Shown here: in pieces, positions 9,382 to 63,991 of the stretch
Layout of the letters: every line of letters starts with the position of its first letter
Numbering within the stretch: position 1 is the first letter of the stretch
Assembly: GCA_963728545.1 (NCBI GenBank)
Contig: CAVSKO010000002.1
Location: forward strand, 2,924,477-2,988,476
Origin: Blastocatellia bacterium
GTDB lineage: Bacteria > Acidobacteriota > Blastocatellia > UBA7656
Length of the DNA stretch: 64,000 nt
Reading direction: 5' to 3'
The notes under the pieces: model-generated
Databases searched by the model: none
What the model was told of the DNA's origin: nothing
What the model saw: only the letters and a program-made list of their open reading frames with translations
Made by a program: the position numbers and the translations under genes

Positions 9382-9648
9382 ATGGCAAATCACAAGTCCG
9401 CAGAAAAACGAGTGCGGCAGAACGAGCGTCGTAACGAAATCAATCGCCGTAACCGCAGCCGCTTGCGCACACAGATCAAAAAGCTCCGCGCCGCAATCGA
9501 CCTGGGTGATGTAGCAGAGGCAAAGACGCTGCTTACCGAAACCGTTTCGGTCATCGATAAGTCTATTCAAAAAGGTGTGCTTCACCAAAACGCCGCTGCC
9601 CGCTACAAATCGAGATTGACCGCAAGCGTCAACGGGATGTCGGCCTAA
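9382..9648 (+). CDS. rpsT: 30S ribosomal protein S20
   Basis: MANHKSAEKRVRQNERRNEINRRNRSRLRTQIKK... is the classic S20 N-terminus. The protein is 88 aa. Confidence 0.9.
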   Translation: MANHKSAEKRVRQNERRNEINRRNRSRLRTQIKKLRAAIDLGDVAEAKTLLTETVSVIDKSIQKGVLHQNAAARYKSRLTASVNGMSA

Positions 9649-9751: not shown

Positions 9752-10627
9752 TTACTTTCGCCGTCTCGTAGTCTTCGTATCGTCCGTGCCCGGCTCAAGC
9801 GTGCAGATAGAGCCGTGTCGCTTGATTCTCAGGTAGACCGATTCAAAGACGCGGAACGGATGATTCATGTGCTCTGCGCCCAGGTAGGCTACCGTTAGAT
9901 CCTGGGCTACGGCCAGGTCGAAGTTCTGCGAGCCGGTCGCAACGACCATACCGTACCCGTCTTTAATCAGAGGCGATTGATAAACGCCGTCGGTGATGAG
10001 CTGGCGGATGTGCTCTATTTCAAGCACTCCCGTGCCGGGATGGACCTGGTGCATCTGCGTATAGAGCGTCGGGCTTACGACCATCGCATAAGGCCCATAA
10101 AATCCCGCCTGCACGAGCGTCTGCGTAGCGTCTACGGTGTCTTGAAACGCATTGCCCGGCTCGGTCCAGTCGCGGCGCGTCAGCACGTGGCGGCCTTCGA
10201 CAACCATCAACCCTTCGTACCCCATCTCGGCGCTGCCGTTGAATATCAGGTCGTCTTCGGCGTCGGCGCAAAAAGCGGCCGCGCCCGCCGCCGCCGAAGT
10301 GTCGAGCGGCGTGCCGCTCTGCCGCGCAGTTTCGATGTCTCGCCAGTGGAGAACGAAGTCTTTGTAGATCAGCGGAATAATTCCGCTCTCCCGCCGCACG
10401 GAGCGGACGGGGTCGGACTCCTCCTCGCCGAGCAATCCTATGCGGCCAATCGTAGTGCCGGAGAAATGATCGTGAACGATAGTCTGTATGCCCGGGCCGA
10501 GCGGGCCGTGAAGGTCTACGATGCGGCGGCCTACCAGGCGCTTGCGCGCAACGTCTATCACTACCTGATTTAGATTTTCCCACTCTTGATCGTTTAGCGG
10601 GTTTTCTTCGTGAGCAAAGATGGGCAT
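9752..10627 (-). CDS. encA: Family 1 encapsulin nanocompartment shell protein (EncA/linocin-M18-like, HK97 fold)
   Basis: The N-terminus MPIFAHEENPLNDQEWENLNQVVIDVARKRLVGRRIVDLHGPLGPGIQT matches M. xanthus EncA (MPDFLGHAENPLREEEWARLNETVIQVARRSLVGRRILDIYGPLGAGVQT). The match continues through IPLIYKDFVLHWRDIE, GVLEIEHIRQLITDGVYQS, MNHPFRVFE and ICTLE. The track ORF begins at a TTG at 10637-10639. The ATG at 10625-10627 (MPIF…) is preceded by GGAGGAGAGG and aligns with the EncA N-terminus, so I take it as the start. Confidence 0.85.
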   Translation of the reverse strand: MPIFAHEENPLNDQEWENLNQVVIDVARKRLVGRRIVDLHGPLGPGIQTIVHDHFSGTTIGRIGLLGEEESDPVRSVRRESGIIPLIYKDFVLHWRDIETARQSGTPLDTSAAAGAAAFCADAEDDLIFNGSAEMGYEGLMVVEGRHVLTRRDWTEPGNAFQDTVDATQTLVQAGFYGPYAMVVSPTLYTQMHQVHPGTGVLEIEHIRQLITDGVYQSPLIKDGYGMVVATGSQNFDLAVAQDLTVAYLGAEHMNHPFRVFESVYLRIKRHGSICTLEPGTDDTKTTRRRK

Positions 10628-10640
10628 CCTCTCCTCCAAT

Positions 10641-11711
10641 CTAAAATTCGAATATACTCCAGCGCGCGCTTTCGGGCAAAGTCAATTCGGCCACGAGATA
10701 TTGTATCTGGAGGCGTGGCGTCGCCTCCGAATTCTTTATCGCGTTGTCTACCTGGGCAATGCGGCGAAGCCCGTGAACTATCTCTTCGCGCCCGCTGCGG
10801 CTGACGCGGGCATTAAAATCGGCGGCGTTTCTGCCGTAGCGGCCCGTAGCGCGGTTGACTTCGTCGGCTTCCGCTCCGCGCGCCATCAAATCCTTTGCGG
10901 CCAACAACCGCCGGTACAGCCCCGCCAACGCGCCAAGTATCATTAACGGATCGTTGCCGTCGTCCAACAACCTTTCCGTGAGCCGGAGGGCGCGCTTGCG
11001 ATTACGCTCAAGGATGGCGTCCCACAACTCCCAGGTCGTGTGCTCGCGCGCGCGCGGCACAAGCTCTTCGACTACGGCAGAGTTGATAAATCCGCCGCCC
11101 GCGTACGAGGCGAGTTTATCCAGTTCGTTTGCCAGCCTCGAAAGACGCGTGCCTACAAGCCCTATCAAAAGACCGAGCGCCGCCGGTTCTATGCGGCAGT
11201 CACGCAGCTTCAAATAGCCTTCGGCCCATCGCGCCGCCTGCTGATCCGAGAGGCGATCAAAAGCGACTACGGTGCAGGCTTTCAAAAGCGCGGTCGAAAG
11301 CTTTCGCCGCTGGTCGAGCGAGACTGTTTGGAAGACGACCGTCGAGGAGGGCGCGGGCCGCTTCAGGTATTCAAGCACCATCTCGGTTTCGCCTTCTTTA
11401 ATCTTGTCGAAATCCTTTATGACAATTATACGGCGCGAGGTTGAAAGCGTCATCTCGTTGGCCGTGTCTATGGCGTCCGCCGCCGTAGTCTTCGCCCCCG
11501 AAGGATGGCTTTCGCCGATGGTAAAAGTGAAGATGTTGAACGCGCGCTCGGCTTCGTCAACGGTGTTATAGAGCAGCCTGAGCGCGCGCTCCCCCAGGTA
11601 TTGCTCTTCGCCCGCAAACAGGTAGAGCGCGTCTATGCGGCGTTCTTTGATCTGGCGGCGAAAATCTTCGTAAGTGATACCGTCGAGCTTTTTTTTGGGT
11701 CGCCTGCTCAC
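10641..11711 (-). CDS. holA: DNA polymerase III subunit delta
   Basis: The protein is 356 aa. ALYLFAGEEQYLGERAL… is a HolA-like N-terminal region. It lies directly downstream of lptE, a conserved lptE-holA arrangement. A GTG start overlaps the lptE stop by 4 nt. Confidence 0.75.
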   Translation of the reverse strand: MSRRPKKKLDGITYEDFRRQIKERRIDALYLFAGEEQYLGERALRLLYNTVDEAERAFNIFTFTIGESHPSGAKTTAADAIDTANEMTLSTSRRIIVIKDFDKIKEGETEMVLEYLKRPAPSSTVVFQTVSLDQRRKLSTALLKACTVVAFDRLSDQQAARWAEGYLKLRDCRIEPAALGLLIGLVGTRLSRLANELDKLASYAGGGFINSAVVEELVPRAREHTTWELWDAILERNRKRALRLTERLLDDGNDPLMILGALAGLYRRLLAAKDLMARGAEADEVNRATGRYGRNAADFNARVSRSGREEIVHGLRRIAQVDNAIKNSEATPRLQIQYLVAELTLPESARWSIFEF

Positions 11712-12229
11712 AGCCCTTCCATTATGGTTGAAATGACGGTCTGCGCGAACTCGCGCGCTATGCGGTCGACAGCCGGGTTCTCTTCGTTGAAAAACGATTC
11801 AGGGTCATCCGAAAGCTGATACTCGCCTTCAAACACCATTCGCGGGTTGTTAAAAAGTATCTTATGCGTGCGGTTATCCCTCACCGTCACGCTCACGATG
11901 ATGCGGACGTCCCAAACCCTGGTGCGCCCCTGCGAGTCGAGGATCGTGCCGACGGCGCGAAAGCTCCTGATGTCGCCGTTGAGCGTGACGTCAGCCGCTT
12001 CGGGGTCGGTGGTCACGCGCAAGCCGCGCGCGCGCTTTAGTATCTCTTCCGCGACCGCCTGTGTGAAACGCTGCTCGACGCGATACTTCAGGCTTGAGTT
12101 TTGAAAGATAGGCACCGCAATCGTCTTGACGTCGGCGGGCAGGCTCTTGCCTTTGCCCGCGGGCTTGTAGCCGCACACGTCCAGCACGAGCGAGAGAACG
12201 ACCGCGATGACTGCTGCTTTAATCATCAA
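11708..12229 (-). CDS. lptE: LPS-assembly lipoprotein LptE
   Basis: Lipoprotein signal (…VLDVCGYKP), 173 aa, and the conserved position upstream of holA. Confidence 0.65.
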   Translation of the reverse strand: MMIKAAVIAVVLSLVLDVCGYKPAGKGKSLPADVKTIAVPIFQNSSLKYRVEQRFTQAVAEEILKRARGLRVTTDPEAADVTLNGDIRSFRAVGTILDSQGRTRVWDVRIIVSVTVRDNRTHKILFNNPRMVFEGEYQLSDDPESFFNEENPAVDRIAREFAQTVISTIMEGL

Positions 12230-16874: not shown

Positions 16875-17069
16875 AAAGCCCCGAAGGGGCGAAATTCAAC
16901 AGCCTGGGGCGCTAGCCCCAGGTCAGCGCCAAACATAACGGCAAGCCCTGTAAGGGCGAAATAGGTTTGATTGATCAACGTTATTTCGCCCTTACAGGGC
17001 TTGTTGATGTAGGCGCGCGCTACCCGGCACGCGGCAGCCGGGCTATTGAATTTCGCCCCTTCGGGGCTT
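16875..17069. mobile_element. Family B MITE-like element, copy 1, with about 30-bp terminal inverted repeats
   Basis: AAAGCCCCGAAGGGGCGAAATTCAACAGCC … GGCTATTGAATTTCGCCCCTTCGGGGCTT. Internal nested hairpins. Intergenic. Confidence 0.7.
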
Positions 17070-29679: not shown

Positions 29680-29868
29680 AAAGCCTCGAAGAGGCGAAAT
29701 TCATTAGCCTGGGGCGCTAGCCCCAGGTCAACGCCGGACAAAATGACAAGCCCTGAGAGGGCGAAATAACCCGAACGATTTATTTCGCCCTCTCAGGGCT
29801 TGTTCTCTTCTGCATGCGTTACCCGGCGCGCGGCAGCCGGGCTATTGAATTTCGCCTCTTCGAGGCTT
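29680..29868. mobile_element. Family B MITE-like element, copy 2
   Basis: AAAGCCTCGAAGAGGCGAAATTCATTAGCC … GGCTATTGAATTTCGCCTCTTCGAGGCTTT. Flanked by the direct repeat TAAGTCCTGAGTG (29651-29663 and 29898-29910). Confidence 0.7.
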
Positions 29869-43710: not shown

Positions 43711-46700
43711 TCAATTTGCAGTCTGCTTCACGTTAAACTTTTTCCCGGCTATGGTTATCACCCCGTTTCGCCCCGTCCCTGTCGCATTCGGCTCGACCGT
43801 GTAGGTGATTGCCCCGTTGCCTATGCCGCAGCAATTCGACGTGATCGTGATCCACGGGACATCGCTCGTTGATTGCCACGCGCAACTTGCGCCCGCACTC
43901 ACGTTGATGATGCTCGCGCCTCCCGAGGCTCCAAATACGATGAACGACGGAGAGAGGGTAAAACTGCAAACGGGCGCGTTCTTTCTGTTTTGAGTGATAT
44001 TGAAGGTTTGTCCGGCAACGGTGATAGTCCCTGTGCGAGGTAGCGGATCGAAATTGTCTCTCACAAGGTAGGTCACGGCGTCGGGGCCCATGCCTGTAGC
44101 ATCCGAAGTTATAGTTATCCAGCTCGCGTTACTCGTCGCCGTCCAGCTACAGTTAGAAGGGGCTGTAACTTTGATGCTTCCCTCGCCGCCTGCGCCCGAG
44201 AAAAACTGGCTGGTCGGGAAGATCGGGAACGAAGCGGTACAACAGTTATTCAGCAAGACCGAGACGTTCGTTGAGACGAAATTCGTCACAGCCAGATCGA
44301 GCTTGCCGTCGCCTGAAAGATCGCCGACAGCAATGCCCTGTGGAACAGTCCCGGTGTCGAAACCGGTGGGCGGGCCAAAGCTGCCTGTTCCTGTGCCTGG
44401 AAGTATGGAGACTTTATTCAAGCTTTCAACCGAAACGGCCAGGTCGTTTATGCCGTCACCGTTTACATCTCCGACGGCGACATAGGAGGGATTGGCCCCA
44501 ACAGCAAAATTAGTAGCCGCGCCGAAGCTCCCCACCCCATCGCCTAACAGAACAGATACATTGCTTGAAGTGTAATTCGTCGTTGCCAGATCGCCCTTGC
44601 TGTCATTGTTGAAATCGCCTGTAGCAATACTGATCGGGTTGAACCCTACTATGAAACTGGACAGAGGACCGAAGCTTCCGGTCCCCGTGCCGAGCAGGAT
44701 AGAGACGTTGCTATTATCAAAACTCGATACGGCAAGATCCGCCTTGCCGTCCGAGTTGAAGTCCGCTACGGCGACTCCCGAAGGGCTCGCCCCGACCGCG
44801 ACATTAATCGCAGCCGCGAAGCTCCCGGTCCCCGTGCCGAGCAGGATAGAGACGTTATTTGAGGTGCTATTTACGACCGCAATATCCGCCTCGCCGTCCG
44901 AGTTGAAATCGCCGACCGCAACCGCGAGGGGATTCGTTCCGACGCCGAAATTTGTGGGTGCGCCGAACGTGCCGGTCCCCGTGCCGAGCAGGATAGAGAC
45001 GTTCGCGGAGTCGAAGATCGATACGGCCAGATCGAGATTGTTGTCATTGTTGAAATCGCCGACCGCAACCGCAGTGGGAGAAGACCCGGCTGCGAAATTT
45101 GCCGCAGCCGCGAAGCTTCCGGTCCCCGTGTTCAAGAAAATCGAAACGACCGAAGAGTCGCGGTTAGCAACAGCCAGGTCGAGGGCGCTGTCTGAGTTGA
45201 AGTTCCCCATAGCGACTCTGATCGGACCCGCGACGGCTCCGTAGTTGACGGCTGCGGCAAAGCTCGGCGCGGCGCAGGGACTGGCCTGTGACACGGTTAC
45301 GGTGTAGCTGCGACTCCCTTTGCAGCCGCCGCTATCGGTAGCGGTCACCGTGAAGGTGAAGCTGCCGGGCGCGGTAGGCGTTCCGGCAAGCGCGCCGCCC
45401 GAAGATAGCGTCAAACCCGTCGGCAAACCGCCGACCGACACTGCAAAGTTGTACGGAGGCGTGCCGCCGCTTGCAGTGATCGTCTGGTTATAGGCTGTGC
45501 CGACAGTTCCCGAAGGAAGCGCGAGCGGCGCGAGCGTGATTGAGGGACAGACCTGCAAGCAGGCCGAGAACTCGGAGCTGTTATTGCCGGGGTCCGTCGC
45601 TATGGCTGTAATCAATTGCCCCACAGGGACCGCCGTTGCGAGGGTGGCCTCGATAGCTGCTATCCCGTTGCCGTCGGTCATCACCGTCGTCGAGCCGAGC
45701 GGTGTCGCGCCTTCGCCGTGCATTGAGCTGTCGCACGATGTGTTTGAGAAGAACTCTACGACGAATTGAGTATTAGCCGCGCTGTTGAGAGTCCCCCGTA
45801 CTGTTGTACTGCTGCCGTTGTTAATTGCAGAGGACAAGACGGGGAAGTTCTGCAAGTTGTTCGGCCCCGAATCCGCATCCATCGGGTCGTTCGGCGTAAC
45901 CCCGTCGGCGCCGAGGTTAATGCCCAGGCCGCCGTTTGAATGGATCGAATCGCTGCGAATCAGATTGCCCGTGCCCGTAAGGATTTGAACTCCGCTGTCG
46001 CCATTGAAAGCGATAATGTTGCCCGCGCCGGGCGCGCTGCCGCCGATTGTGTTGTTACTCCCGCTTATTGAAATGCCGTCGCCGCCGTTGCCCAGCGCGC
46101 CTGTGCCCGCAACGTTTGTGCCGACATAGTTGCATTGGATCGTGTTGTTGCCGCTCGTATTAGTCTGGATGCCTCCGCCTCCGAAGCGGTTGATGACAAG
46201 CCCTTGCACGGTGCTGTTGCCCGCGTTTACGACAACCCCGATTGCGCCTGCGCCTGCGTTTGTGCCGTTTAATTCGATGATCGGCGTCGATGTAAATCCA
46301 GGTTGCGTCTTGCCGTCGATTATGACAGGGTCGGTGATCGCAGGCAGCGGCGAAGAGGGCGTGATCGTCTGTGCGCCTGTCCCTATGGAGAAGTTGATTC
46401 TGTTCACGCCCGCAAAGGCATTCGCCTGTTGAAGGGCCGCGCGCAATGTGCAGAAGCCCGTGCCGTCATTACAGGCCATATCGGAGAGGTTGTTGTCGCC
46501 CGCGTCGCCCGTCGAATTAACCACGAACGTGCCCGAAAAATTCTGCTTGCACGCGGAAAACTCGGAAGTGTTGCCCGCAGGGTCTGTCGCCGTCGCGGTG
46601 ACTACGTGACCGGCGGGAACGCTGCCCGCGAACGGAATGATGAATGACACGTTGCCCGTCGCATCGGTCGTGACATTCATCGTGCCTAAGAAGGTCTGCC

Positions 46701-49700
46701 CTTCGCCGTTTCCCGACCCGTCACAGCCCGGCTGTGAGAAGAATTCGAGCCTGAACGTAGTGTTTGCATTGCTGTTGAGGCTGCCCGTGACGGTGACGGT
46801 AGTCGTTAGCGATGAAGTAATAACGGGGAAGTTTTGCAGGGTGTTGGCTCCCAGGTCCGCGTCGCCCGCATCGTTCGGTGTGACGCCGCGCGTCGTCCCA
46901 TCAGGGCTTAAATCGATCCCAAGCCCTGTGTTTGAGAAGATAGAATTTGAAAGAATCCTGACGACTCCACCCGCGCGTACGAACACGCCGTCTTCGCCGT
47001 TGAAGGCTATCACATTGCCCGCACCCGCCGCAGTCCCGCCTATAGTGTTATTGCTCATTGCGGCAACCCCGTTAACGTGAACGCCGTTCATACTGTTAGG
47101 CAGCGGGCTTGCGCCGTCGGCTTTTGTGCCTATGAAATTGCCCTGCACGAGAATTCCTGTGCCACCTGGAAGGAATTCAATGCCGTTCTGGTTGTTGCCC
47201 GATATGACATTTCGGGCCGCAGCCACAGTTCCTCCGATTGTGTTGTTGGGCGCAGTAATGAGAATGCCGTTAATCGTGTTGCCTAGGTCGAGCGTGCCTG
47301 TAACATCCGTCCCTATGAAGTTGCCCTGAATGGCGTTGTTCTGCCCGATACCGACGAGGCCTATGCCTTGTTCATTATTGCCGGATATGAGGTTGCCCGC
47401 GCCCGCCGCAGTCCCTCCGATAGTATTGCCTGGACTGCCGATTATACCGACGCCGCTCCCATTGTTGCCCAGGTCGAGCGTGCCCGTAACGTCCGTCCCT
47501 ATGAAGTTGCCTTGCACGAGATTTCCGGTTGAGGTGCCGCCCATAATCTCTACGCCGTTACGGTTGTTGCCTGAAATTAAATTGCGCGCCGCGACCACAG
47601 TCCCGCCGATTGTGTTATTCGAGCCGGGGTTGATGAACACGCCGTCCATTGAGTTTCCGCGATCCAGGGTTCCTGATGAATCCGTTCCGATGATGTTGCC
47701 CTGAACTTGCGTTCCCGTGCTCGTGATTTCGATGCCGTGCCGCCCGTTGTCAGAGATCAAATTGCCTGCGCCGCCGGTTGTTCCCCCAATCACATTGTTT
47801 TGCGCAGCGACAAGCAGGCCATTATTACCATTGCCAAGTTCATTGATTCCGTTGGCGGCCAGACCAATGATGTTGCCTTGAACGGTATTTCCTGTCGCGC
47901 TTGCCCCGCCGATCTGAATGCCGTGAGAGCCGTTGCCTGAGATCACATTGCGCGCGGCTGCGGTAGTTCCCCCAATCACGTTGCCGGGCGCGTTGTTTAT
48001 ATTGATGCCTGCCGCGCTATTGCCCCGGTCGAGCGTGCCTGTGACATCCGTGCCGATAAGGTTTCCTTGCACCTGCGTTCCGCTACAGTTGCTGGTGATC
48101 ATTATGCCGTTACTTCCATTGGCGCATATGATATTGCGCGCCCCCGCCGTCGTTCCGCCGATAATGGTGTTGGGCGCATTTGTAATATCTATGCCGGAGC
48201 CCGAATTGCCTAAAGCGTTTGCGCCTGTGACATCCGTGCCTATGTAGTTCCCGCGCACAATGCTGCCGGCCCCCGGATTGATAACGATTCCCGAACCGGT
48301 ATTGCCGGAGATTATATTGCGCGCTGCGACAGACAATCCGCCTATGGTAGTGTTGTCGGCTGAGACGAACAGGCCGCCTAAGCCATTGTCTCTGCGTATA
48401 GTGCCCGTCAAATCCGTGCCGATATAATTGCCTTCAATCAACATGTTGCTGCCGAATGCCAGTTGAATCCCCCTTTGACTGAAGCGATTTATCACCAATC
48501 CGCGCACGGCGCTGTTGGCGGCTATTATCAAGAGTCCGTTCACGCCTGCGCCTGCGCCTGCGCCGTTCAGCTCGATAATCGGCTTGCCTGCAAACCCCGG
48601 CTGAGTTGTGCCGTCAATGAGGGTCGTCTCATTGACCGACGGCAGGGCTGAAGTCGGGGCGATTGTCTGCGCTCCTCCCCCTCCTATTTCAAAGGCAATC
48701 GTATTTGCGCCTGCGGTTGCATTGGACTGTTGAATCGCTGCCCGCAGCGTACAATTGCCCGAGCCATCGTTGCAGATTCCGTCGCCCAGGTTGTTGTCAC
48801 CCGCGTCGCCTGTTGAGGTGACGACAAAGAAACCGGTCGCTGAAGTGACTTGAACGCACGAAGAAAACTCGGAAGTGTTGTTTGCGGGATCGGTTGCCGT
48901 AGCGGTGATGAACCGGCCCGAAATGACTGTCGCGAAGGCTGTGAAGTTTATATTTGCATTGCCGCCGCCGTCGGTCAGGATTGTCGTCGAGCCGAAAAGG
49001 GTCTGCCCCTCGCCGTTGTTCGAGCCGTCACAAGCGCTGTTGTAGAAAAACTCTATAGTGAATGTCGTATTAGCCGTACTGTTGAGCGACCCCACGACGG
49101 TTGTGCCCGGCCCCGAAGCGGCCGAAGTCAACACGGGAAAGTTTTGTAGATTATTGGAACCCGTGTCGCCGTCTCCCGAATCGTTCGCCGTCACTCCCGT
49201 CGGCGCAAGGTTAATGCCCGGACCGGCGTTCGAGAAGATCGAATTCCCGCTTATGGAATTCCCTGTGCCGGTATTGACAAAGACCCCTGCGGCTCCGTTG
49301 AATGCTATGAGATTTGCAGCGCCGCTTACGCTCCCGCCGATACTGTTATTGCTTGCGAAACCGAAAATCGAGAAGCCGGTTAGAAAAACTCCGTGCGAGT
49401 TATTTCCGAGCGCAGAAGTCCCGTTCGCCTGTGTGCCGATAAAGTTGCCTTGCACTAAATTCTGATTGCTCGCGAATATCTCGACGCCGCCATGAGTGCT
49501 TGAGGTCGTGTTTCCCGAAATGACGTTGCGCGCGGCGGTCGTCGTGCCGCCTACGGTGTGGCTGTTTCCCTGAAAGAGGAAGACACCCATCTGAGCGTTC
49601 GGGAGGGCCGAGGTCCCTGCGGCGTTCGTGCCAACATAATTGCCCTGGACCAGATGTCCTGTCGCGCTGGTTCCATCTATCCGAATGCCTTCGTCGTTCG

Positions 49701-51732
49701 CAGAAACGACGTTGCGCGCCCCCGCCGTCGTGCCTCCAAGGGTGTTGCCTGACCCGCCATTGATCACCAGTCCGGGGCTAGCCAGCCCGCCTACCCCGGC
49801 GCTGCCCGATGCATTAATGCCTATGTAGTTGCCTCGCACAAAGTTTCCTGTCCCGCTGCCGGAGATCAAAATACCGCGAAGCGAATTCCCTGAAACGATG
49901 TTGCGCGCAGCGGCAGTCGTGCCCCCAATCGTGTTATTTGATCCGTCAACAAAAATGCCGATTGTGTTAGCCGAGGCAGAGTTGCCCGCCGCGTCTACGC
50001 CTGTGTAGTTGCCTTCGATAAAGTTGTTTCCGCCCGATTGCAAGCGTATGCCGCTATCGCCGAAACGATTAATGACAAACCCCTTCACGGTGCTGCTGCC
50101 TGCCGTGATAAAGAATCCATTTACGTTTCCCGCGCCGCTCCCGTCTAACTCGATGAGAGGACTGCCCGCAAAGCCCGTTTGAGTCGTAGCATCAATCGTC
50201 ACCGCGCCTGTGACGATCGGAAGCGCCGAGGAGAGGGAGATCGTTTGCGCCCCCGACCCTATCTGGAAGCTAATCATGTCGGCGCCCGAGTTTGCGTTCG
50301 CATCGAGAATCGCCTGTCTGAGCGACCCCGATCCGCTGTCGCTCGTGTTCGTCACTGCGAACGTAGAGACGGGCGCAGTCTCTGCCACCGAGGGCGCGCT
50401 GTGCCCGGTTCTAAGTATCACCAGGTCGCTCAACGCATCATTGTTTAACCGCATTGGCATCACGGCAACGGGGTCGCCTTCTACGTCAAGAGACGCCGCG
50501 ATTCTCGGCGACGACGCGGGCGCAGACTCATGGCTGCCAATTACGATTTGCAGTTGACGGCTCGCGTTATCGATGACCAGCAGATCATCCGTCGTGCTTG
50601 TCGAAACGTTAGCCCGTAACAGGCGGGCCGACGCAGATAGCCGGTCGGAAATCAACGGCTCGCTCTCCCAAACCTGCTTTTCGGCTCTCCATCTCATCAC
50701 GTGAAGCTCGCCTTCACTTGAGAGCACCGCCGCTTCGAACCTGCTGCTGCCCGTAAATTCGCCGAGCGCGATTGACTCGATGGCGAACGGAAAGTAATGG
50801 CGGCTGACGAGGGGACGAGAAACGTCGCGCCGCGCAGCTTCATTAAGCGACAGTTTCCGGTCGCGCCCGTGAATTATGATCGCCTCAGAACCGGCTCCCA
50901 CAGCCAGATCCATCGGGTAGGCGTCATCCATCTGGCCCATTGCCATCGCGCGGGCCTCGGCAGGCAATTGGATCTCTTCCGGCTCGGCCCTGAGCGCGCC
51001 TTCCGGCCCTTCAAAGACCAGCGCCTTCGGCCCGTCGCCCGCATTGATACTCACGGCAAGGTCAGTCAACCCATCTGCGCGATTGATCTCTCCCGCTACC
51101 ATCACGGTAACACTGCCGCGCAACTGTATGCGCCTCGCAGGCAGAAAGCCGCCGCGCCCATCGCCCGCAAGCAGAAAGAGCGCGTTCGCGCCCGCCTGGG
51201 CGCTCACAACATCCCAGTGTCCGTCTGCGTCGAAATCTCCCGCGCTCAAAAAATCGGGCGGCGCGGGCAGGCTCACCGCTCGCGCATGGGGTAAGAATGC
51301 CGAGTCTATAAATCTCGATTCGGCTTTGCGCTTTTGGGCTTCGGGGCTATTCGGATAGATCGAATCGATATTGCCGCGACAGAGTGTAAGGATTCCGGCG
51401 GCAGCATGCCTGTAACCCGTCACAAGGTCTGGCGCCCCGTCTTCGTCGAAATCAGCGGAAGCGATTGAGAGCGGCGCGGCCTGGTCTTTCTCTAAAGCCT
51501 GCGCCAGGAGGGCGTCGCCTTCGTAGGTCTGTTCAAGCCCGTAACCATCTTGCAAGTTGATGGCGGGGTTGCCCCGGCCCGCCGCTCGCAAAGCCTCGTC
51601 CCTCTTCTGCGATTTGCCCACGGCGAAGTTGAGCGGCGCAAAAGAGAGCGAAATAATTGTATAAGCCAGAACAGTAATCATCGCGCCGAGAAGTATTAGC
51701 GCGCGATGAAGCGAAAGCGGGGATTTACGCAT
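43711..51732 (-). CDS. Giant secreted surface protein (2673 aa) with FG-GAP/VCBS repeats, a right-handed parallel beta-helix repeat array, a He_PIG-like Ig domain, a second FG-GAP block and two C-terminal BACON-like beta domains
   Basis: Signal/TM N-terminus. FG-GAP-type D-x-D-x-DG motifs ([23 protein letters not shown]). Dozens of 25-28-aa [22 protein letters not shown] beta-helix repeats. [28 protein letters not shown] (He_PIG). Six VGDFNxDxxxDLAV FG-GAP units. Two C…SW…S.ASWITITS modules. No stop codon across 8 kb. Confidence 0.8.
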
Positions 51733-57472: not shown

Positions 57473-57576
57473 TGTGAAGTTCTCCCTTTCAGCTAAATTT
57501 GTCTATTAGACGGCGCGGGCCTCTGCTTTCTTCAGTATTTTTTGGAAAGGAGAACAAATTCAATGATCTTGGTAGA

Positions 57577-57698
57577 AAAGCCCCAAAGGGGCGCAATTCA
57601 ATAGCCTGTGGCAACGCCACAGGTCAACATCAAACAGAACGACAAGCCCTGTAAGGGCGAAATAAGTTTGATCGATCGACTTTATTTCGCCCTTACAG
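57577..57698. mobile_element. Family B MITE-like element, copy 4, left portion, interrupted by the IS insertion
   Basis: AAAGCCCCAAAGGGGCGCAATTCAATAGCC…TTATTTCGCCCTTACAG. The element then stops, and its remainder continues at 59404. Confidence 0.65.
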
Positions 57699-59403
57699 GA
57701 GACTGCTAAAAAAGTTGGCAAGTCCCGGTCGGCGCAGTATCCTGAAAGCGACTTCTAGCAGAGGAGCGGTTCCCATGCTCAAACCAGACTACTACATCGC
57801 CCCGACCGACATCGATCTCTTGGTCTTTGCTAAACTCATCCCCGCTGATCACTATCTGCGCCAACTCAAAGCCATGATTGATTTCGACTCGCTGCGTCAT
57901 CTGGTCGCCGATTGTTACTCACCCTCGATGGGGCGCAGCGCCCAAGACCCGGTGCGCTTGCTCAAGCTCAACTTCCTCCAATTTCACTATGAGTTGTCGG
58001 ATCGCGAAGTCATCGCTGAGGCTCAGGTCAATGTCGCCTTCCGTTTCTTCCTCGACTTGGCGCTCGATAGCCCATTGCCAACGCCGCCCTTGTTGACCCA
58101 GTTTCGCACCCGCCTTGGCGTCGAGCGATTCCAAAACCTCTTTGATGAGATTCTCCGCCAAGCCCGCCACCTTGGCTTGGTCAAAGATCGCCTGCGCCTC
58201 AAAGACGCCACCCACATCATTGCTAACATTGCCGTGCCCTCGACGATTCGCCTGGTCGCTTCTAGCCGCGAGCGGTTGTTGGCGGCCGCCCAGCCCTTTG
58301 CGCCCGAAGCCGTCGTCGCGCATCAACAGCGCGCCATCGGGATTCGTCAAGCCACCGCCGATCTCAAAGACCAAGCGCGCTTGCTGCAACGCGTCGAGCA
58401 GTTGCGTGAGATCGTCGTCTGGGCCGAGCACTGGGCCGCTCCGCCAGTTGGCGAGCCAGTTGGCGAGCCAGTTGGCGAAGCCACCACCGAGTTGCGCGCG
58501 GCGCTCGACCTGGCCCACAAGATATTGGCTGATCGCCAGCCCCAAGCCCAAGATAAGCTGTTGTCGCTGGTTGACGAGCAAGCGCGCACCGGCAAACACG
58601 GCGAGTATTACAATGGCTATCTGCTGGATGTCAGCCTGGATGCCGACTCGGAGTTGATCTGCGCCATCGAGGTGCTGCCGGCCAATGGCGATGAAGCCAA
58701 GGATGCCCAGCCCTTGATTGAATCTGAAGAAGCGGCGCACGGCAATGACATCAAAAGTTTGTTGATGGACGCGATCGGCTTTCGCGGCGAGGTGTTGCGC
58801 GAGTTGGCGGTCGAGAGCGGGCCACAACTGACCGTGTATGTGCCGTCGTATGAGTGGCCGGGCTCGGTGCCCGGCTTGTTTCAACCGGGAGATTTTCAAC
58901 TCGATGAGCCCGGCGAAGCATTGCAATGTCCGGGTGGGCAAACCAGCCGCAGTCGCACGCGAACAGGACGCGATCAAGGCTGGCAATACTTTTTTCCAGC
59001 CCGCCAATGCCAAGCTTGTCGGTTGCGCACGACTTGCCTGAAAGCGGGAGCGAAAGGAGGACGAACGGTTATCAAGAACGACTACGAAGCGGAATATCAA
59101 GCGGCCAGAGCGCGCGCCACCACGGCAGCCTATCAGGAGGTGAGAAAGCAGCATCCGCGGATTGAGCGGAAGCTGGCCGAGATGATGCGCTGGCATGGCG
59201 GCAGGCGAGTGCGCTATCGCGGGCGATTGCGAGTGAAGATTCAGTATGTGCTGACCGCCGTCGTCGTCAACCTCAAGCGCATGGTCAAGCTGTTGAACCT
59301 GCCACTGAGTCACCAGCCTGCCTGAAGTGCGGGCAGCAGACCGTGCGTGGTGATGATGAGGTGTATCGTGCTTCATTTCAACTCGGACTTTTTTAGCAGT
59401 CTC
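57699..59403 (+). mobile_element. Insertion sequence, IS5/IS1182-superfamily type, 1705 bp with 17-bp perfect terminal inverted repeats and a 5-bp target duplication
   Basis: IRL GAGACTGCTAAAAAAGT (57699-57715). IRR ACTTTTTTAGCAGTCTC (59387-59403). TACAG direct repeats at 57694-57698 and 59404-59408. A single transposase ORF. Confidence 0.8.
57775..59325 (+). CDS. IS5/IS1182-family DDE transposase with an InsH-type N-terminal domain
   Basis: …VRLLKLNFLQFHYELSDREVIAEAQVNVAFRFFLDL…LLTQFRTRLG… is an InsH_N-type domain. C-terminal DDE region. The ATG at 57775 is preceded by GAGGAG. The upstream TTG at 57715 is less likely to be the start. Confidence 0.8.
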   Translation: MLKPDYYIAPTDIDLLVFAKLIPADHYLRQLKAMIDFDSLRHLVADCYSPSMGRSAQDPVRLLKLNFLQFHYELSDREVIAEAQVNVAFRFFLDLALDSPLPTPPLLTQFRTRLGVERFQNLFDEILRQARHLGLVKDRLRLKDATHIIANIAVPSTIRLVASSRERLLAAAQPFAPEAVVAHQQRAIGIRQATADLKDQARLLQRVEQLREIVVWAEHWAAPPVGEPVGEPVGEATTELRAALDLAHKILADRQPQAQDKLLSLVDEQARTGKHGEYYNGYLLDVSLDADSELICAIEVLPANGDEAKDAQPLIESEEAAHGNDIKSLLMDAIGFRGEVLRELAVESGPQLTVYVPSYEWPGSVPGLFQPGDFQLDEPGEALQCPGGQTSRSRTRTGRDQGWQYFFPARQCQACRLRTTCLKAGAKGGRTVIKNDYEAEYQAARARATTAAYQEVRKQHPRIERKLAEMMRWHGGRRVRYRGRLRVKIQYVLTAVVVNLKRMVKLLNLPLSHQPA

Positions 59404-59480
59404 TACAGGGCTTGTCTGTTGTGTCTGCCAGAACCCGGCGCGATGCGCCGGGCTATTGAATTGCGCCCCTTTGGGGCTTT
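59404..59480. mobile_element. Family B MITE-like element, copy 4, right portion
   Basis: TACAGGGCTTGTCTGTT…GGCTATTGAATTGCGCCCCTTTGGGGCTTT. It resumes the MITE sequence exactly after the IS. Confidence 0.65.
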
Positions 59481-59504
59481 TGATCTGTGTTCTATTGAAA
59501 AAAT

Positions 59505-62084
59505 TTAGCGCGAGCGGACGGCTACGACCGTGATGTCATCTTCCTGCTCGCGACCGCTGAATTGTATGACTTCGGCGACTACGTCTTCGTGCAGCGACAC
59601 AACGGTCTGGCACCGTTTCGACTGCAAGGCTTCGATCAAACGCGCTTCGCCGTACTCTTCTCCGTCATCGCTCGTAGCTTCCGTGACGCCGTCGGAAAAA
59701 GCTACGAGCGTGTCGCCGGGCTCAAGCGTGACTTCGCCCGTCTCACAGCCCCAGCGGTCAAACAATCCCAGCACCATCGCCGTCGCTTCTAACCTTTGGA
59801 CCTCGCCCGTCACGCGAACCAGCAGCGGAGGGTTGTGCCCGCAGTTGACGTAGCGCAATCTTCGGGTGTCATCCTCATAAGTGGCAAAAAACAATGTCGC
59901 GAAATGTTCGGGTGCGGTTGATTCATAAAACAGATGATTTACAGTGCACAGCAGTCTTGACAAATCTTCAATCGCCAGCGCGTACTGGCTGCGAAGGTTG
60001 GCTTGAAGGTTAGCCATTAACAGAGCGGCGCTGATTCCCTTCCCCGAAATGTCTGCCAGAACAATCGCGAGGCGGCCTGGACCGAGGTCTAGAAAATCAT
60101 AATAGTCGCCCCCGACCGCTCGCGCCTGTATGCAGCCGCCCACGTATTCGAGCGTCTCAAGCGGCGGCATCTTTTGAGGAAAGAGTTTAGTTTGAACCTG
60201 GCGGGCTATCTCCATCTCGCGAGAGGCGCGGCGCTCGGCTTCTATGCGGTCGGCCATCTGCTCGGCCAGGCGTCTGCTCTCAATCGCTATGCCGACTTGA
60301 GCGGCAACCGTGGCGAGCAGCCGCTTGTCTTCGCCCGAATATGGTTCTTCCGACATCCGCGCGCCGAGCGCAATCAATCCGACGAGCCGGCCTTCGCGCC
60401 CCATCACAGGGACCAGGCATTCGGCCTCCATCGGCGCAAGCTCGCTCAATTGCGCGCGCCCCTCATCTCCCGCAGAAACGTCCCACGGCTCGCCGCGCTC
60501 GGTGAGCCGCGCGAGCACCGAGAGTCGAGAGGAGATGGTTTCCGGCCCTTGCGCCTGTTGCCCGCCTGCTACTCGGAGGTTGTCGTCGGCGCTTTCAAGG
60601 TAGATGGTTATCGAATCGGGATGAAGCGCTTCATTCAGATGGCGCGCAAGCAGCGAAGCAAGTTCCGCGCGGTCTACGGTCGTGCGCGCCTTCGCGGCCA
60701 GGTCTTCGAGTATGTGGCGCGCGTCGTAAGCGCTTCGGAAAAAGGCGCGGTCGATCCTCTCGGTGATGCGGCGTTCGGCCTGCGCCACGAGCCAGGCCAG
60801 AAGCATTCCAAACCCCACGCCGAAGGCGATGCCTGCCGCCCGCGATTCGGAATCGGGCCGCACGAAACTAGAGAATATGTTTATGAAGAGAAAGGTCGCG
60901 CCTGCGCTCAATAAAAAGATGAACAACACGAAGCCGCGCTGGACCATCAGGTAGCGCGCGCTTCTTTTGAGCAGCACAGGAATCTCCATGACCCTGTGCT
61001 TGACCACCACGTAGGCGAACGAGGAAGGAAAAAGCAGAAAGAGTATCACCGGAAGGATGAAGGCGGGCGAAAAATAAAACCCCGCTATGAACCTCGACGC
61101 AGGCCCCCAGTAGTAGGACATCAAAACGAGCGCGCCTAACCAGCCGACGACCGACCCGGCGACCAGCACGCGCACCCTCCGTTTTTCGCCCGCGTCTTCC
61201 AGGCGGCGATAATTTACGATCAATGCCGCAAGCCCCGCGACGACGTAAAGCGGCGGCAGGTAATTCGTGGCCGATAAAAACCAGTCCAGCTCCGCCGGAA
61301 CAAGCTCGGGCCGATAGATCATCGAGTAATAATACTCGGCGCGCGAAGGCAGGCTCAGCGCCACAGGCAGCCACACCAAAAGCCATACCCAGCGCGCGTG
61401 AAACAGTCTTCGAGGAAAGATAGCAAAGAAGGTGAAAAGCAGCGGCGCGAATACTGTTGTGCTAAAAAGCGGTATCCACAAAAGCGCGCCCAAAAGCGAC
61501 GGCAGCTCTCGCCAGGTCGCGGCCATGCCGTAAGGCAATAGAAACGACATCGTCGCTACGGTTGCCAAAAACCAGCCGCCCACGCGGTTTATCAACTCAT
61601 ACGGGCGGCTGAAAGCGATTACGATTGCAAGTATCAAAGTGATGAGCTGCGCGAGCCTGACCATCAGCAAGACCATGCCTTCTCTCGAAGTCCAATCGCT
61701 CCACGAGCTTTGCATCAAGGTCAGCTCGGTTTCAAACTCGCGGCCGCCGCGCTCTATCGTGAGCGGGACCGGGCGGCCTGCTTCGAGGTTGACGCGCACT
61801 ATCGTCCAATCAGGGAGCGTTTTGATTATGCGCCCGTCAGCCGACACCACTCGGTCGCCCGGTTCGAGTCCGGCGCGCGCGGCGGGCGAATCGGGCAAGA
61901 TCATGCGCACGGTCTTCTGTTCGTTGTTGAACTCCGTCAGCATCCCCGTCATCTGCGGCCCGAGGAAATCCGAGTAGACGAGCAAAATAAAATAGGCCAG
62001 GAATGAAGCCGCGACCACGTACATCCACCAGGGCGCGCGGCGGCGTGACACAGGTTGCTCGGAAGAATGCGTATCGTCAGTCAT
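59505..62084 (-). CDS. Membrane-bound PP2C-family (SpoIIE/RsbU-like) Ser/Thr phosphatase with N-terminal PDZ, a multi-TM region and a GAF domain
   Basis: PDZ (…ILPDSPAARAGLEPGDRVVSADGRII…), about 9 TM helices, a GAF-like segment, and a PP2C_SIG domain (…GGDYYDFLDLGPGRLAIVLADISGKGISAALLMA…FSDGVTEA…). Confidence 0.8.
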   Translation of the reverse strand: MTDDTHSSEQPVSRRRAPWWMYVVAASFLAYFILLVYSDFLGPQMTGMLTEFNNEQKTVRMILPDSPAARAGLEPGDRVVSADGRIIKTLPDWTIVRVNLEAGRPVPLTIERGGREFETELTLMQSSWSDWTSREGMVLLMVRLAQLITLILAIVIAFSRPYELINRVGGWFLATVATMSFLLPYGMAATWRELPSLLGALLWIPLFSTTVFAPLLFTFFAIFPRRLFHARWVWLLVWLPVALSLPSRAEYYYSMIYRPELVPAELDWFLSATNYLPPLYVVAGLAALIVNYRRLEDAGEKRRVRVLVAGSVVGWLGALVLMSYYWGPASRFIAGFYFSPAFILPVILFLLFPSSFAYVVVKHRVMEIPVLLKRSARYLMVQRGFVLFIFLLSAGATFLFINIFSSFVRPDSESRAAGIAFGVGFGMLLAWLVAQAERRITERIDRAFFRSAYDARHILEDLAAKARTTVDRAELASLLARHLNEALHPDSITIYLESADDNLRVAGGQQAQGPETISSRLSVLARLTERGEPWDVSAGDEGRAQLSELAPMEAECLVPVMGREGRLVGLIALGARMSEEPYSGEDKRLLATVAAQVGIAIESRRLAEQMADRIEAERRASREMEIARQVQTKLFPQKMPPLETLEYVGGCIQARAVGGDYYDFLDLGPGRLAIVLADISGKGISAALLMANLQANLRSQYALAIEDLSRLLCTVNHLFYESTAPEHFATLFFATYEDDTRRLRYVNCGHNPPLLVRVTGEVQRLEATAMVLGLFDRWGCETGEVTLEPGDTLVAFSDGVTEATSDDGEEYGEARLIEALQSKRCQTVVSLHEDVVAEVIQFSGREQEDDITVVAVRSR

Positions 62085-62266
62085 AATCTGATAGCGTGGC
62101 CGGATCGTGATGCAAGTGCCAGGATACTCCTAACTCAAAAGCGGCGACAAGTCGCCGCACTCCAGAGGCGCGGTTGAACGAGAATCCAAATCGCTGTTCG
62201 TCTTGTTGAATTTCCGGTCTCTTCCCGCTTATACTTCGGCTTCTCCATAAAGATAAAGGAACCCAG

Positions 62267-62833
62267 ATGAGCCGAAACGATCTCACAAAGCGCAATCCCT
62301 GTATAGGGTTTATAGAATCAAGCTCGATTGCACGCGGCATAGAAGCAACGGACGCCATGCTGAAGATGGCCGAAGTCGAGCTGTTAATGACGGTGATCAT
62401 CCCTCGCGGCAAATACCTGATAATGATCGGCGGCGCGGTCGCGGACGTGGAATCGGCTCTGAGAGCCGGTCTGGCGTCGGCAGGCGAGACGGTGCTCGAT
62501 CATTTCATCATTCAAAACGCCCACCCGGAGCTTCCCGACGCGATCAAGGGCCGCGTGAAGGTTGACCACATAGAGGCAATCGGGATCATCGAGACTAAAG
62601 AGGTGGCTCCGGCCATTTACGCGGGCGACGCTGCGGTTAAATCGGCCAACATAACCTTGATCGAAGCGCGCAACCAGCCGGGAGGAAAAGGGCTGGTCGT
62701 GTTGACGGGCGAGGTCGGGGCCGTGCGAACAGCCGTCGCGGCGGGCGTCGCTTCGATTAAAAAGGACGGCATGTTAATCGCGCAAATAGTCATTCCTTAC
62801 GCTCACCCCGAACTCAGAAAAAGCTTGATGTGA
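62267..62833 (+). CDS. Bacterial microcompartment shell protein with two tandem BMC domains (BMC-T/PduT-like)
   Basis: Domain 1 is LGFIESSSIARGIEATDAMLKMAEVELL…IIPRGKYLIMIGGAVADVESALRAGLASAG…IIQNAHPELPDAI. Domain 2 is IGIIETKEVAPAIYAGDAAVKSANITLIEARNQPGGKGLVVLTGEVGAVRTAVAAGVASIKKDGMLIAQIVIPYAHPELRKSL. Both match the PF00936 consensus (…IETxGxxAAIEAADAMVKAANV…GLVTVIVRGDVGAVKAAV…VIPRPH…). An SD AAAGGA precedes the ATG. Confidence 0.8.
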   Translation: MSRNDLTKRNPCIGFIESSSIARGIEATDAMLKMAEVELLMTVIIPRGKYLIMIGGAVADVESALRAGLASAGETVLDHFIIQNAHPELPDAIKGRVKVDHIEAIGIIETKEVAPAIYAGDAAVKSANITLIEARNQPGGKGLVVLTGEVGAVRTAVAAGVASIKKDGMLIAQIVIPYAHPELRKSLM

Positions 62834-62836
62834 CGG

Positions 62837-63991
62837 TCAAGGCTTTATGGCCGCTTCGATCAGCTCTATGCGCTCGCGCGGGGTCTCGCCGTCGCGCACG
62901 GATTTTTCGATCTTCTCCAGGGTGTCAAACCCGTCTACGACTTTGCCGAAGACCGTGTATTTGCGGTCGAGGTGGGGGGCCGGGCCGAGCACTATAAAAA
63001 AAGAGGTGCTGGCCGAATCCGGGTCATCAGCCCTGGCCATCGAAAGCACGCCGCGCGTATGCTCGATTTTGCTGAACTCGCCTTTGAGATTGCCCACCCA
63101 GCGGTCCGCCGTGTGCCCGACGCCGCCCGCTCGCGTAAAGCCCATGCCGCCCTGCACGACGAACCCCGGTATGAGCCTGTGAAAAGCCGTGTGATCGTAC
63201 CAGCCCGTCTGTACCAGCTTTAAGAAATTGCGCACATGCTCGGGCGCAAGGTCGGGAGCCATCTCTACAGTCATATCGCCGAGGCTGGTTCTGAGCAGCA
63301 CATCTTTTCTGAGCTGATCGAGGGTGGCGTCCTTAAACGGCTCGACTTTCGCGGGCTCGATTTTGACCGAGATGATCTTGATAGGCGTTACGATCCTCTG
63401 TTGGTCGTCGGCTTGCGCGAGCGAAATCTTGTCTACGACCTCCATGCCTTCCGTGACCTGGCCGAAGGCCGAGAACTGCCCGTCGAGTTGTGGCTGCGGC
63501 GAAGCGCAGATAAAAAATTGTGCGCCTCCGCTATCGGCCTTTCCCGGTATGCGGACAGTGGAGACGGTCCCGCGCTCGTGCGGGATGTCTGAAAACTCGT
63601 CCTTGATCTGGCTCAAGGCTCCCGAGCCCCATCGGTCGCGCGGCGTTTTGGGGTCTTTCAAAAGCGGGTCGCCGCCTTGAACTACCCCGCGAGGGATCAC
63701 GCGATGAAAGGCGGAGCCGTCGTAAAATCCGGCCCTCGCGAGCTTGATGAATTGTTGCGTGTGGCGGAGCGCCTTGTCGGGGAAAAACTCGAAGCGTATA
63801 ACGCCAAAATCGGTTGTGATGACTGCTTCAAGCTTCGCCGCTTCTTCTACTGTAACGGGCGCGGCCTCTGTCGTCTGCGATTTCTTCTTCTGCGCAATAG
63901 ATTGCTGCCACACGCCCGGCGCTAGAAGAAAAAGAACTAACCAGATTATAAGAATTCTTTTTCGGCCAACTCCCTCGCTAAATATAACCAT
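62837..63991 (-). CDS. Secreted peptidyl-prolyl cis-trans isomerase with two cyclophilin-type domains
   Basis: Signal peptide. Two cyclophilin cores (…FHRVIPRGVVQGGDP… and …FHRLIPGFVVQGGMG…) with …GKVVDGFDTLEKIE…. Confidence 0.85.
   Translation of the reverse strand: MVIFSEGVGRKRILIIWLVLFLLAPGVWQQSIAQKKKSQTTEAAPVTVEEAAKLEAVITTDFGVIRFEFFPDKALRHTQQFIKLARAGFYDGSAFHRVIPRGVVQGGDPLLKDPKTPRDRWGSGALSQIKDEFSDIPHERGTVSTVRIPGKADSGGAQFFICASPQPQLDGQFSAFGQVTEGMEVVDKISLAQADDQQRIVTPIKIISVKIEPAKVEPFKDATLDQLRKDVLLRTSLGDMTVEMAPDLAPEHVRNFLKLVQTGWYDHTAFHRLIPGFVVQGGMGFTRAGGVGHTADRWVGNLKGEFSKIEHTRGVLSMARADDPDSASTSFFIVLGPAPHLDRKYTVFGKVVDGFDTLEKIEKSVRDGETPRERIELIEAAIKP

Follow-up and report, generated by a model that had tools for sequence, protein, structure and literature searches.

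A solitary PduT-like BMC-T shell protein gene in Blastocatellia, probably a one-gene satellite of the ACI microcompartment

Shell genes that stand apart from a main microcompartment locus are common, and 149 such satellite loci were counted in a 2014 survey (Axen 2014, PMC4207490). In Acidobacteria, the closest described system is the ACI microcompartment, which is exclusive to this phylum, occurs mainly in subdivisions 4 and 6, is always the sole locus type in its genome and is the only type named for these two subdivisions (Sutter et al. 2021, PMC8217296). The ACI main locus encodes a class II aldolase that carries an encapsulation peptide at its C-terminus, along with a 2-hydroxyacid dehydrogenase, a BMC-H protein and a triplet of BMC-P proteins, and its aldehyde dehydrogenase and part of its shell genes are found on satellite loci (Sutter et al. 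2021, PMC8217296). In the BMC-T(s) tree of the same catalogue, two acidobacterial proteins marked 'ACI (sat)' and 'pduT-like', DMF83_13245 (A0A2V7U826, 182 aa) and DMF78_13520 (A0A2V7XYE4, 189 aa), fall in the clade Ts_asparagus_SPU1-Elusimicrobia. This BMC-T occurs in only about 6 of the 125 ACI genomes catalogued, and an ACI main locus is asserted for the genomes of two related MAG proteins (PMC8217296). The SPU1 (sugar-phosphate-utilisation) type itself has been reported in Elusimicrobia only, and its member of the clade is described as a structural BMC-T without a pore cysteine (Sutter et al. 2021, PMC8217296). We found no literature on ACI beyond this catalogue; the organelle is functionally uncharacterised and abundant in soil bacteria.

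The window, by which we mean the whole stretch of 64,000 nucleotides of Blastocatellia DNA that was analysed, carries a gene for a protein of 188 residues 1.2 kb short of its end (Table 1). Pfam matched PF00936 in two stretches of this protein (140.9 bits, E 1.3e-41, cut-off 24.5 bits), the best of which spans residues 104-177 inside domain 2, and two PF00936 domains in one chain are a hallmark of a BMC-T(s). HMMER aligned the protein over its full length, colinearly and without permutation, to 3NWG (E 2e-39), to PduT 3N79 (E 4e-35) and to 3PAC, in a nearly ungapped alignment of residues 11-187 with residues 3-181 of 3NWG and PduT. The topology is therefore the non-permuted one of PduT, neither PduB/EutL-type nor CsoS1D-type, and the PduB and EutS models of NCBIfam reached only 17-19 bits. 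The top NCBIfam model was eut_PduT (TIGR02526), at 102.5 bits against an equivalog cut-off of 250.3 bits. Both claims of the first-pass annotation about the protein itself, two complete BMC domains and a PduT/BMC-T-like arrangement, are borne out by these matches.

The AlphaFold2 (AF2) model, computed from 40 family members, consists of two beta-alpha-beta BMC folds with a mean pLDDT of 80. Domain 1 is built of strand 11-18, helix 21-34, strands 37-45 and 49-57, helix 58-75 and strand 76-82, and the elements of domain 2 run from strand 104-110 to helix 181-187. The top 38 Foldseek matches in the PDB were BMC-T(s) proteins, engineered derivatives of them and one tandem BMC-H fusion (6NER). The inter-domain orientation of the AF2 monomer is unreliable, with a TM score of about 0.48 for the whole chain and 0.84 for single domains. 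BMC-T(s) tiles form trimers that act as pseudohexamers and slot into the facets of a microcompartment. The interface lysines of both domains, K33 in DAMLK and K125 in DAAVK, are invariant across 55 acidobacterial sequences. Judged by its sequence, the 188-residue protein can be classed as a PduT-like, cysteine-less, single-layer tandem-domain shell tile of the BMC-T(s) type, which would presumably form trimers and be incorporated into a shell.

Table 1. Positions of the shell protein gene, its parts and other features in the window
Feature	Position	Strand	Basis
Sigma-70-like promoter TTGAAT-18 nt-TATACT, the gene's own	62206..62235	+	consensus scan
Ribosome-binding site AAAGGAA, 5 nt ahead of ATG	62255..62261	+	read from sequence
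BMC-T(s) shell protein CDS (188 aa + stop)	62267..62833	+	ORF, PF00936 x2
BMC domain 1, about residues 11-93	62297..62545	+	AF2 and alignment to PduT domain 1
BMC domain 2, about residues 103-187	62573..62827	+	Pfam and AF2
Domain-1 pore loop P46-R47-G48-K49	62402..62413	+	HMMER alignment to 3N79, 3NWG
Domain-2 pore loop A134-R-N-Q-P-G-G-K-G142	62666..62692	+	family alignment
Membrane PDZ-GAF-SpoIIE (PP2C) phosphatase, left neighbour, divergent	59505..62084	-	Pfam
Double cyclophilin, right neighbour, convergent	62837..63991	-	Pfam
GC-rich hairpin with T-run	62141-62158	-	
DDE transposase	57715..59325		within 57560..59495 insertion
Acido-Lenti-1	57579-57623	-	Rfam
Acido-Lenti-1	59434-59478	+	Rfam
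Acido-Lenti-1	16877-16922	-	Rfam
Acido-Lenti-1	17023-17068	+	Rfam
Acido-Lenti-1	29682-29727	-	Rfam
2,673-aa ORF with FG-GAP, He_PIG, BACON and beta-helix repeats	43711-51732	-	Pfam
Second large protein, Ig/He_PIG matrixin-like	6219-9146		Pfam
Encapsulin, family-1, Linocin_M18 E 7.7e-72	9752..10639	-	Pfam
holA	10641-11711	-	
lptE	11708-12229	-	
rpsT	9382-9648	+	

We searched all ORFs of 60 aa or more in the six frames of the 64-kb window by phmmer, seeded with BMC-T, BMC-H (PduA) and four BMC-P sequences, and found no second shell gene; the EutN seed was verified as identical to PDB 2HD3. Likewise, among roughly 50 of the window's ORFs compared with Pfam, none matched an aldehyde dehydrogenase, a class II aldolase, a 2-hydroxyacid dehydrogenase, PduL, PduS or a glycyl-radical enzyme. 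As in a satellite locus, the shell genes of the window are thus confined to a single Pfam type and unaccompanied by BMC enzymes, in agreement with the first-pass view that no microcompartment locus surrounds it.

The family is large. A protein search returned 1,194 clusters at 90% identity, and the best 120 of these 1,194 clusters are 181-211 aa long (most of them 187-189), 72-95% identical and from Blastocatellia wherever a name is given. Scanning one genome per species yielded about 55 loci, the majority in Blastocatellia and the rest in Vicinamibacteria, unclassified Acidobacteriota, a few mislabelled MAGs and two Elusimicrobia. The nearest genomes are Blastocatellia MAGs at 93-97% identity, which places the host in Acidobacteria subdivision 4 or 6; three of them, L001 (95% protein identity), L007 (97%) and L008 (93%), are syntenic with the window. 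The shell gene is solitary in all 53 acidobacterial loci within 10 kb on each side, and its neighbours vary: a secreted AstE/AspA-like hydrolase with a signal peptide lies directly upstream in 17 loci, an alpha/beta-hydrolase and a gas-vesicle cluster follow downstream in 7, GMC oxidoreductase genes adjoin the BMC-T gene in others, and a large upstream gene of unknown type is present in 12, mostly from Vicinamibacteria or unclassified Acidobacteriota. Neither this upstream gene of Vicinamibacteria nor a 417-aa gene of L001 has a Pfam match, and these two, like the AstE/AspA-like hydrolase, give no functional hint.

The seven gas-vesicle genomes (L009, L010, L013, L014, L019, L021 and L041, all Blastocatellia) place a same-strand cluster past the BMC-T gene, for example at 10595-16964 of L041, which comprises the alpha/beta-hydrolase, three GvpL/GvpF paralogs, a 108-aa gene and a double ArsA-like ATPase. 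Genes of a second protein-bounded compartment are thereby found beside a shell gene, probably as plain synteny.

Pairwise dN/dS values of 0.02-0.11, estimable for 10 of 11 relatives, indicate strong purifying selection on the BMC-T gene. Its promoter is conserved as well: the TTGCAA...TATACT pair is kept wherever the gene has an upstream spacer of its own, and the promoter pair persists despite unrelated upstream genes in L006, L010, L014, L015, L019, L031, L032 and L041. Selection and the conserved promoter together demonstrate that this is a functional, independently transcribed gene and not a remnant. Rfam detected no RNA element near it. In L007 and L008, 21 bp containing the AAAGGAA site, present in the window and in L001, are missing, and the ATG follows TATACT after only about 11 nt; translation would then begin on an almost leaderless mRNA or at a different start codon.

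The two Elusimicrobia relatives, 68% and 65% identical, are the closest outside the phylum. In both loci the ortholog lies between AldDh and RpiB, within the order BMC-H, BMC-P, AldDh, BMC-T, two RpiB, two BMC-P, DeoC-type aldolase and BMC-H, and these loci are of the SPU1 type of Sutter et al. 2021. Because the orthologs are integral to complete SPU1 loci, the family is a genuine shell component.

We then compared the family with ACI itself. In the MAG project of the catalogue entries, the proteins of AA35 (L042) and AA32 have 182 aa and that of AA29 (L053) has 189 aa; judged by length, taxon and project, AA35 and AA29 are very probably the entries DMF83_13245 and DMF78_13520, respectively. 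A metagenome scan with a PduN-led BMC-P alignment recovered 16 soil loci (GC 0.52-0.57) in which a BMC-H gene is followed by adjacent BMC-P genes, three of them wherever the contig is complete. L104 and the MAG contigs L142-L144 (2.0, 6.27 and 0.52 Mb) share one conserved ACI block, at 7862-11783 of L104, 7544-11434 of L142 and 6262-11420 of L143, in the order Rex-like regulator, TonB_C protein (in L142-L144), class II aldolase, BMC-H, three BMC-P and a protein of about 160 aa. In L142-L144 the block occupies a fixed chromosomal site between ruvAB and LemA/TPM/Zip/mraZ, and L104 shows only ruvA alongside. L130 and L109 add a 2-hydroxyacid dehydrogenase, and their aldolase has an EP-like tail. 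All six of these main loci, examined gene by gene, encode one BMC-H and three BMC-P proteins and no BMC-T, so any BMC-T of ACI must be encoded elsewhere. A Haliangium BMC-P query matched Myxococcota only, and a scan of viral contigs gave no ACI shell genes.

Two components of the Blastocatellia ACI loci may be recorded here. The Rex-type redox-sensing regulator that opens them combines Put_DNA-bind_N and CoA_binding, and the closing protein of about 160 aa has a Cys-rich C-terminus with the motif CELEPGGKPC-x-HC-x-MC-xx-RGF.

Taken together, we consider the gene, with a probability of about 0.62, to be a one-gene satellite locus for a cysteine-less PduT-related BMC-T(s) of the ACI microcompartment. 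The window protein would belong to the acidobacterial branch of a cysteine-less PduT-related clade whose other members are built into Elusimicrobia SPU1 loci. Acidobacteria would keep this BMC-T as a one-gene satellite under its own sigma-70-type promoter, and it would most likely supply the ACI shell, to which the main locus contributes only BMC-H and three BMC-P proteins. An ACI main locus is presumably present in the source genome. The taxonomic range of the BMC-T, Blastocatellia and Vicinamibacteria, is that of the subdivisions (4 and 6) hosting ACI loci. The first-pass annotation had presented the gene as an orphan, either a satellite of a distant locus or a repurposed BMC-fold protein; the former option is now favoured and the latter less so. 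The novelty does not survive, since the clade and the solitary placement already stand in the 2021 catalogue as 'ACI (sat)', which makes this an ordinary gene rather than a new kind of orphan.

The alternative that survives best, though we hold it to be rather doubtful, is a true orphan or repurposed BMC fold. The host lineages would have no BMC-H/BMC-P locus and the trimer would work outside any shell, perhaps by assembling into a sheet-like scaffold or by binding anions in soluble form. The solitary position in 53 of 53 acidobacterial loci among unrelated neighbours (AstE-like hydrolase, gas-vesicle cluster, GMC oxidoreductases), the near-consensus promoter of its own and a conservation stronger than that of most shell paralogs would all suit such a gene, and with about 6 of 125 catalogued ACI genomes the BMC-T is not a universal ACI part. 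A co-occurrence search, which used an ACI BMC-P1 profile and exact look-ups of 12 BMC-H and 6 BMC-P variants, gave no shared contig: none of the ACI shell contigs among the matches listed (6.27, 5.77, 2.30, 2.03 and 2.00 Mb) is a BMC-T contig, and the BMC-T contigs (5.70, 7.92, 2.91, 3.57, 4.73 and 4.09 Mb) are absent among the ACI BMC-P1/BMC-H matches listed. Among the matches listed, the NCBI accessions of BMC-T and BMC-H are too far apart for one genome. Comparing the flanks of ACI loci and of BMC-T loci by blastp, we found only a 52%-identical queA in common. However, the ACI matches listed are a small sample of clusters with hundreds to thousands of members, and the missing shared contigs among them reflect this.

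The orphan reading is kept alive by an offset in names, in that the named ACI BMC-H and BMC-P1 proteins among the matches listed are mostly 'Pyrinomonadaceae bacterium' and the BMC-T matches are never so named, being labelled 'Blastocatellia bacterium', Vicinamibacteria or similar. This offset may reflect the labelling of MAGs from unnamed orders combined with an ACI profile built from one sublineage, or the distributions of the BMC-T and of ACI main loci may overlap only partly. Against a shell-free role stand the 65-68%-identical orthologs with the same pore loops that are integral to SPU1 loci, the interface lysines kept by both domains, the clade members that the catalogue places in genomes with an ACI main locus, and a taxonomic range equal to that of ACI. 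A more specific and unlikely scenario is that the gene is the only BMC-family gene in those Blastocatellia other than Pyrinomonadaceae that carry it, namely a tile captured from an Elusimicrobia-type SPU1 locus and retained by strong selection for a shell-independent role under a constitutive-looking promoter of its own. We also observed that JGI/IMG product names look swapped for many of these proteins: the name 'microcompartment protein CcmL/EutN' is often given to PF00936 (BMC-H/T) proteins and 'CcmK/EutM' to PF03319 (BMC-P) proteins, and text mining of IMG names would misclassify shell types.

A satellite of some other microcompartment elsewhere in the genome appears improbable. The closest relatives encoded within a locus belong to SPU1 and not to ACI, and PVM-like loci exist in other Acidobacteria, but the catalogue records SPU1 in Elusimicrobia only and has ACI as the sole locus type per genome and the only one for subdivisions 4/6.

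We return to the ACI satellite reading and to the surroundings of the gene in the window. The position close to the window end could suggest that the BMC-T gene is merely the edge of an ordinary BMC locus just past it. The 9-10 kb past the cyclophilin in the syntenic L001, L007 and L008 encode a protein of 763 aa, DUF488, a metallophosphatase and a Tricorn/S9 peptidase, and none of their ORFs matches PF00936 or PF03319, which argues that the window edge hides no locus and leaves this alternative very improbable. Neither the 52 kb left of the gene in the window nor the 9-10 kb to its right in the same three relatives contain a BMC-H gene, a BMC-P gene or a signature enzyme. Hence the first-pass annotation, for which a full locus beyond the right edge would have turned the orphan into an ordinary locus member, was sound on this point.

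Pfam also confirmed the flanking genes it had named, a divergent PP2C-type phosphatase, separated from the BMC-T gene by 182 bp, and a cyclophilin. Its suggestion of a shared promoter region and co-regulation with the phosphatase fares differently. A DNA comparison revealed that the window lacks 2.8 kb that part the phosphatase from the BMC-T gene in L001, L007 and L008, namely three genes, one class-A beta-lactamase-like and two unknowns. Neither this phosphatase nor this cyclophilin lies near the BMC-T gene in the other 50-odd loci. The adjacency is unique to the source genome and a product of the 2.8-kb indel, and co-regulation is unsupported. In addition, L001 has an NTP_transf_2/HepT toxin-antitoxin pair before the cyclophilin that is absent from the window. 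The GC-rich hairpin with a T-run that separates the phosphatase start from the BMC-T promoter could be what is left of the terminator of a gene deleted here relative to L001 and L007, and one such site is expected by chance.

The same comparison showed an insertion of 1.9 kb in the window with a DDE transposase inside. Rfam gave five Acido-Lenti-1 (RF01687) matches in the window, two of which are inverted copies at both ends of this segment. Because the segment they flank encodes a transposase and is absent from L001, L007 and L008, the Acido-Lenti-1 'sRNA' motif appears to be an inverted repeat that forms the termini of an insertion sequence; the remaining copies could be solo or miniature forms derived from it. 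By its repeats, the product of the 2,673-aa ORF looks like a giant secreted or cell-surface protein, and a second large protein is encoded nearer the start of the window.

The encapsulin that the first-pass annotation placed about 52 kb away, as a shell protein of an unrelated compartment system, is real. It has no link to the BMC-T gene and sits in an lptE-holA-encapsulin string beside rpsT, starting 2 bp past the holA stop, and no cargo gene (DyP, ferritin-like or similar) adjoins it on either side.

What the tile might do in the ACI shell is suggested by its pores. P46, R47, G48 and K49 of the domain-1 loop are invariant across the 55 acidobacterial sequences, and the IEARNQPG(G/A)KG motif of domain 2 is found in 56 of the 57 family sequences compared, Elusimicrobia L049 included. 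We infer from an alignment with the G-S-G pore motif of PduA that Arg47 of domain 1 and Lys141 of domain 2 line the pore. SPU1 compartments process sugar phosphates, and the class II aldolase family, which provides the ACI signature enzyme, acts on sugar phosphates. A basic pore free of metal would suit anions, and the protein, with Arg47 and Lys141 in place and no [4Fe-4S] cluster, may serve as a structural tile or let anionic metabolites, sugar phosphates for instance, pass through. The pore cysteine that the first-pass annotation proposed to look for is replaced: in the HMMER alignment, Pro46 stands at the position of Cys38, the Fe-S ligand of PduT. The sole cysteine, C12 at the start of strand 1, forms the only cysteine column of the family and is kept in 34 of 55 members. 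No conserved pore cysteine was found in the 55 acidobacterial sequences, and the 10 kb flanking the gene to left and right, both in the window and across the 53 acidobacterial loci, encode no PduS-like flavoprotein. An electron conduit of the PduT type, with its [4Fe-4S] cluster on the trimer axis and a PduS-like reductase as partner, to which the top rank of eut_PduT and the 41% identity to PduT might have pointed, is refuted at the sequence level by Pro46 and the unconserved C12, and the score far below the equivalog cut-off and the missing PduS-like genes also make it extremely improbable.

If the ACI satellite reading is true, the window adds a further copy of a satellite shell gene that is already catalogued, with nothing new in kind. 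It would still be useful to BMC specialists to know how large the family is, and that its gene always stands alone in Acidobacteria and has its own promoter. Moreover, the invariant basic pore, common to SPU1, offers a testable hint on what passes through the ACI shell. The annotation labels suggest that the BMC-T is distributed more narrowly than ACI main loci, or in a pattern offset from theirs. Should the gene prove to be an orphan instead, it would be one of the rare shell proteins retained where there is no shell.

Among known systems, the second BMC-T(s) of SPU1, of clade Ts_asparagus_SPU1-Elusimicrobia, is 65-68% identical to the window family over its full length. It has in common with the acidobacterial family the N-terminal tail M-x-x-N-D-L-x-x-x-N-P, the (P/A)RGK and AR(N/P)Q(P/S)GGKG pore loops and the lack of a pore cysteine, but it is encoded within a main locus, between AldDh and RpiB, whereas the acidobacterial gene is always alone. 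The ACI satellite entries share phylum, clade label and solitary placement with the window protein, and L042/L046 (182 aa) and L053 (189 aa), which have the lengths of the catalogue entries, are 71-77% identical to it. The entries appear to be of the Vicinamibacteria type, whereas the window protein belongs to the Blastocatellia branch.

PduT of Salmonella or Citrobacter (3N79, 3PAC) and Dhaf_0360 (3NWG) have the same tandem, non-permuted BMC domains at 41-46% identity. They are single-layer trimeric tiles, to which the window protein is likened by sequence and AF2 model. Their pore cysteine ligates a [4Fe-4S] cluster, whereas the window protein has Pro-Arg there, and PduT is encoded in the pdu operon with PduS, in contrast to the window gene, which has no PduS. 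BMC-T1 of HO (Hoch_5812; 5DIH, 6N06) is a cysteine-free BMC-T(s) and a structural tile of its shell by cryo-EM, and that shell, with one BMC-H and three BMC-P types, is composed like the ACI shell; its identity to the window protein is only about 33%, and its pore residues are different. Finally, CcmK3/CcmK4 of beta-carboxysomes are likewise encoded by shell genes away from the main locus and separately regulated (PMC4207490; PMC5853843), although they are BMC-H paralogs of a carboxysome and the window gene would encode a BMC-T of a heterotrophic metabolosome with an unassigned substrate.
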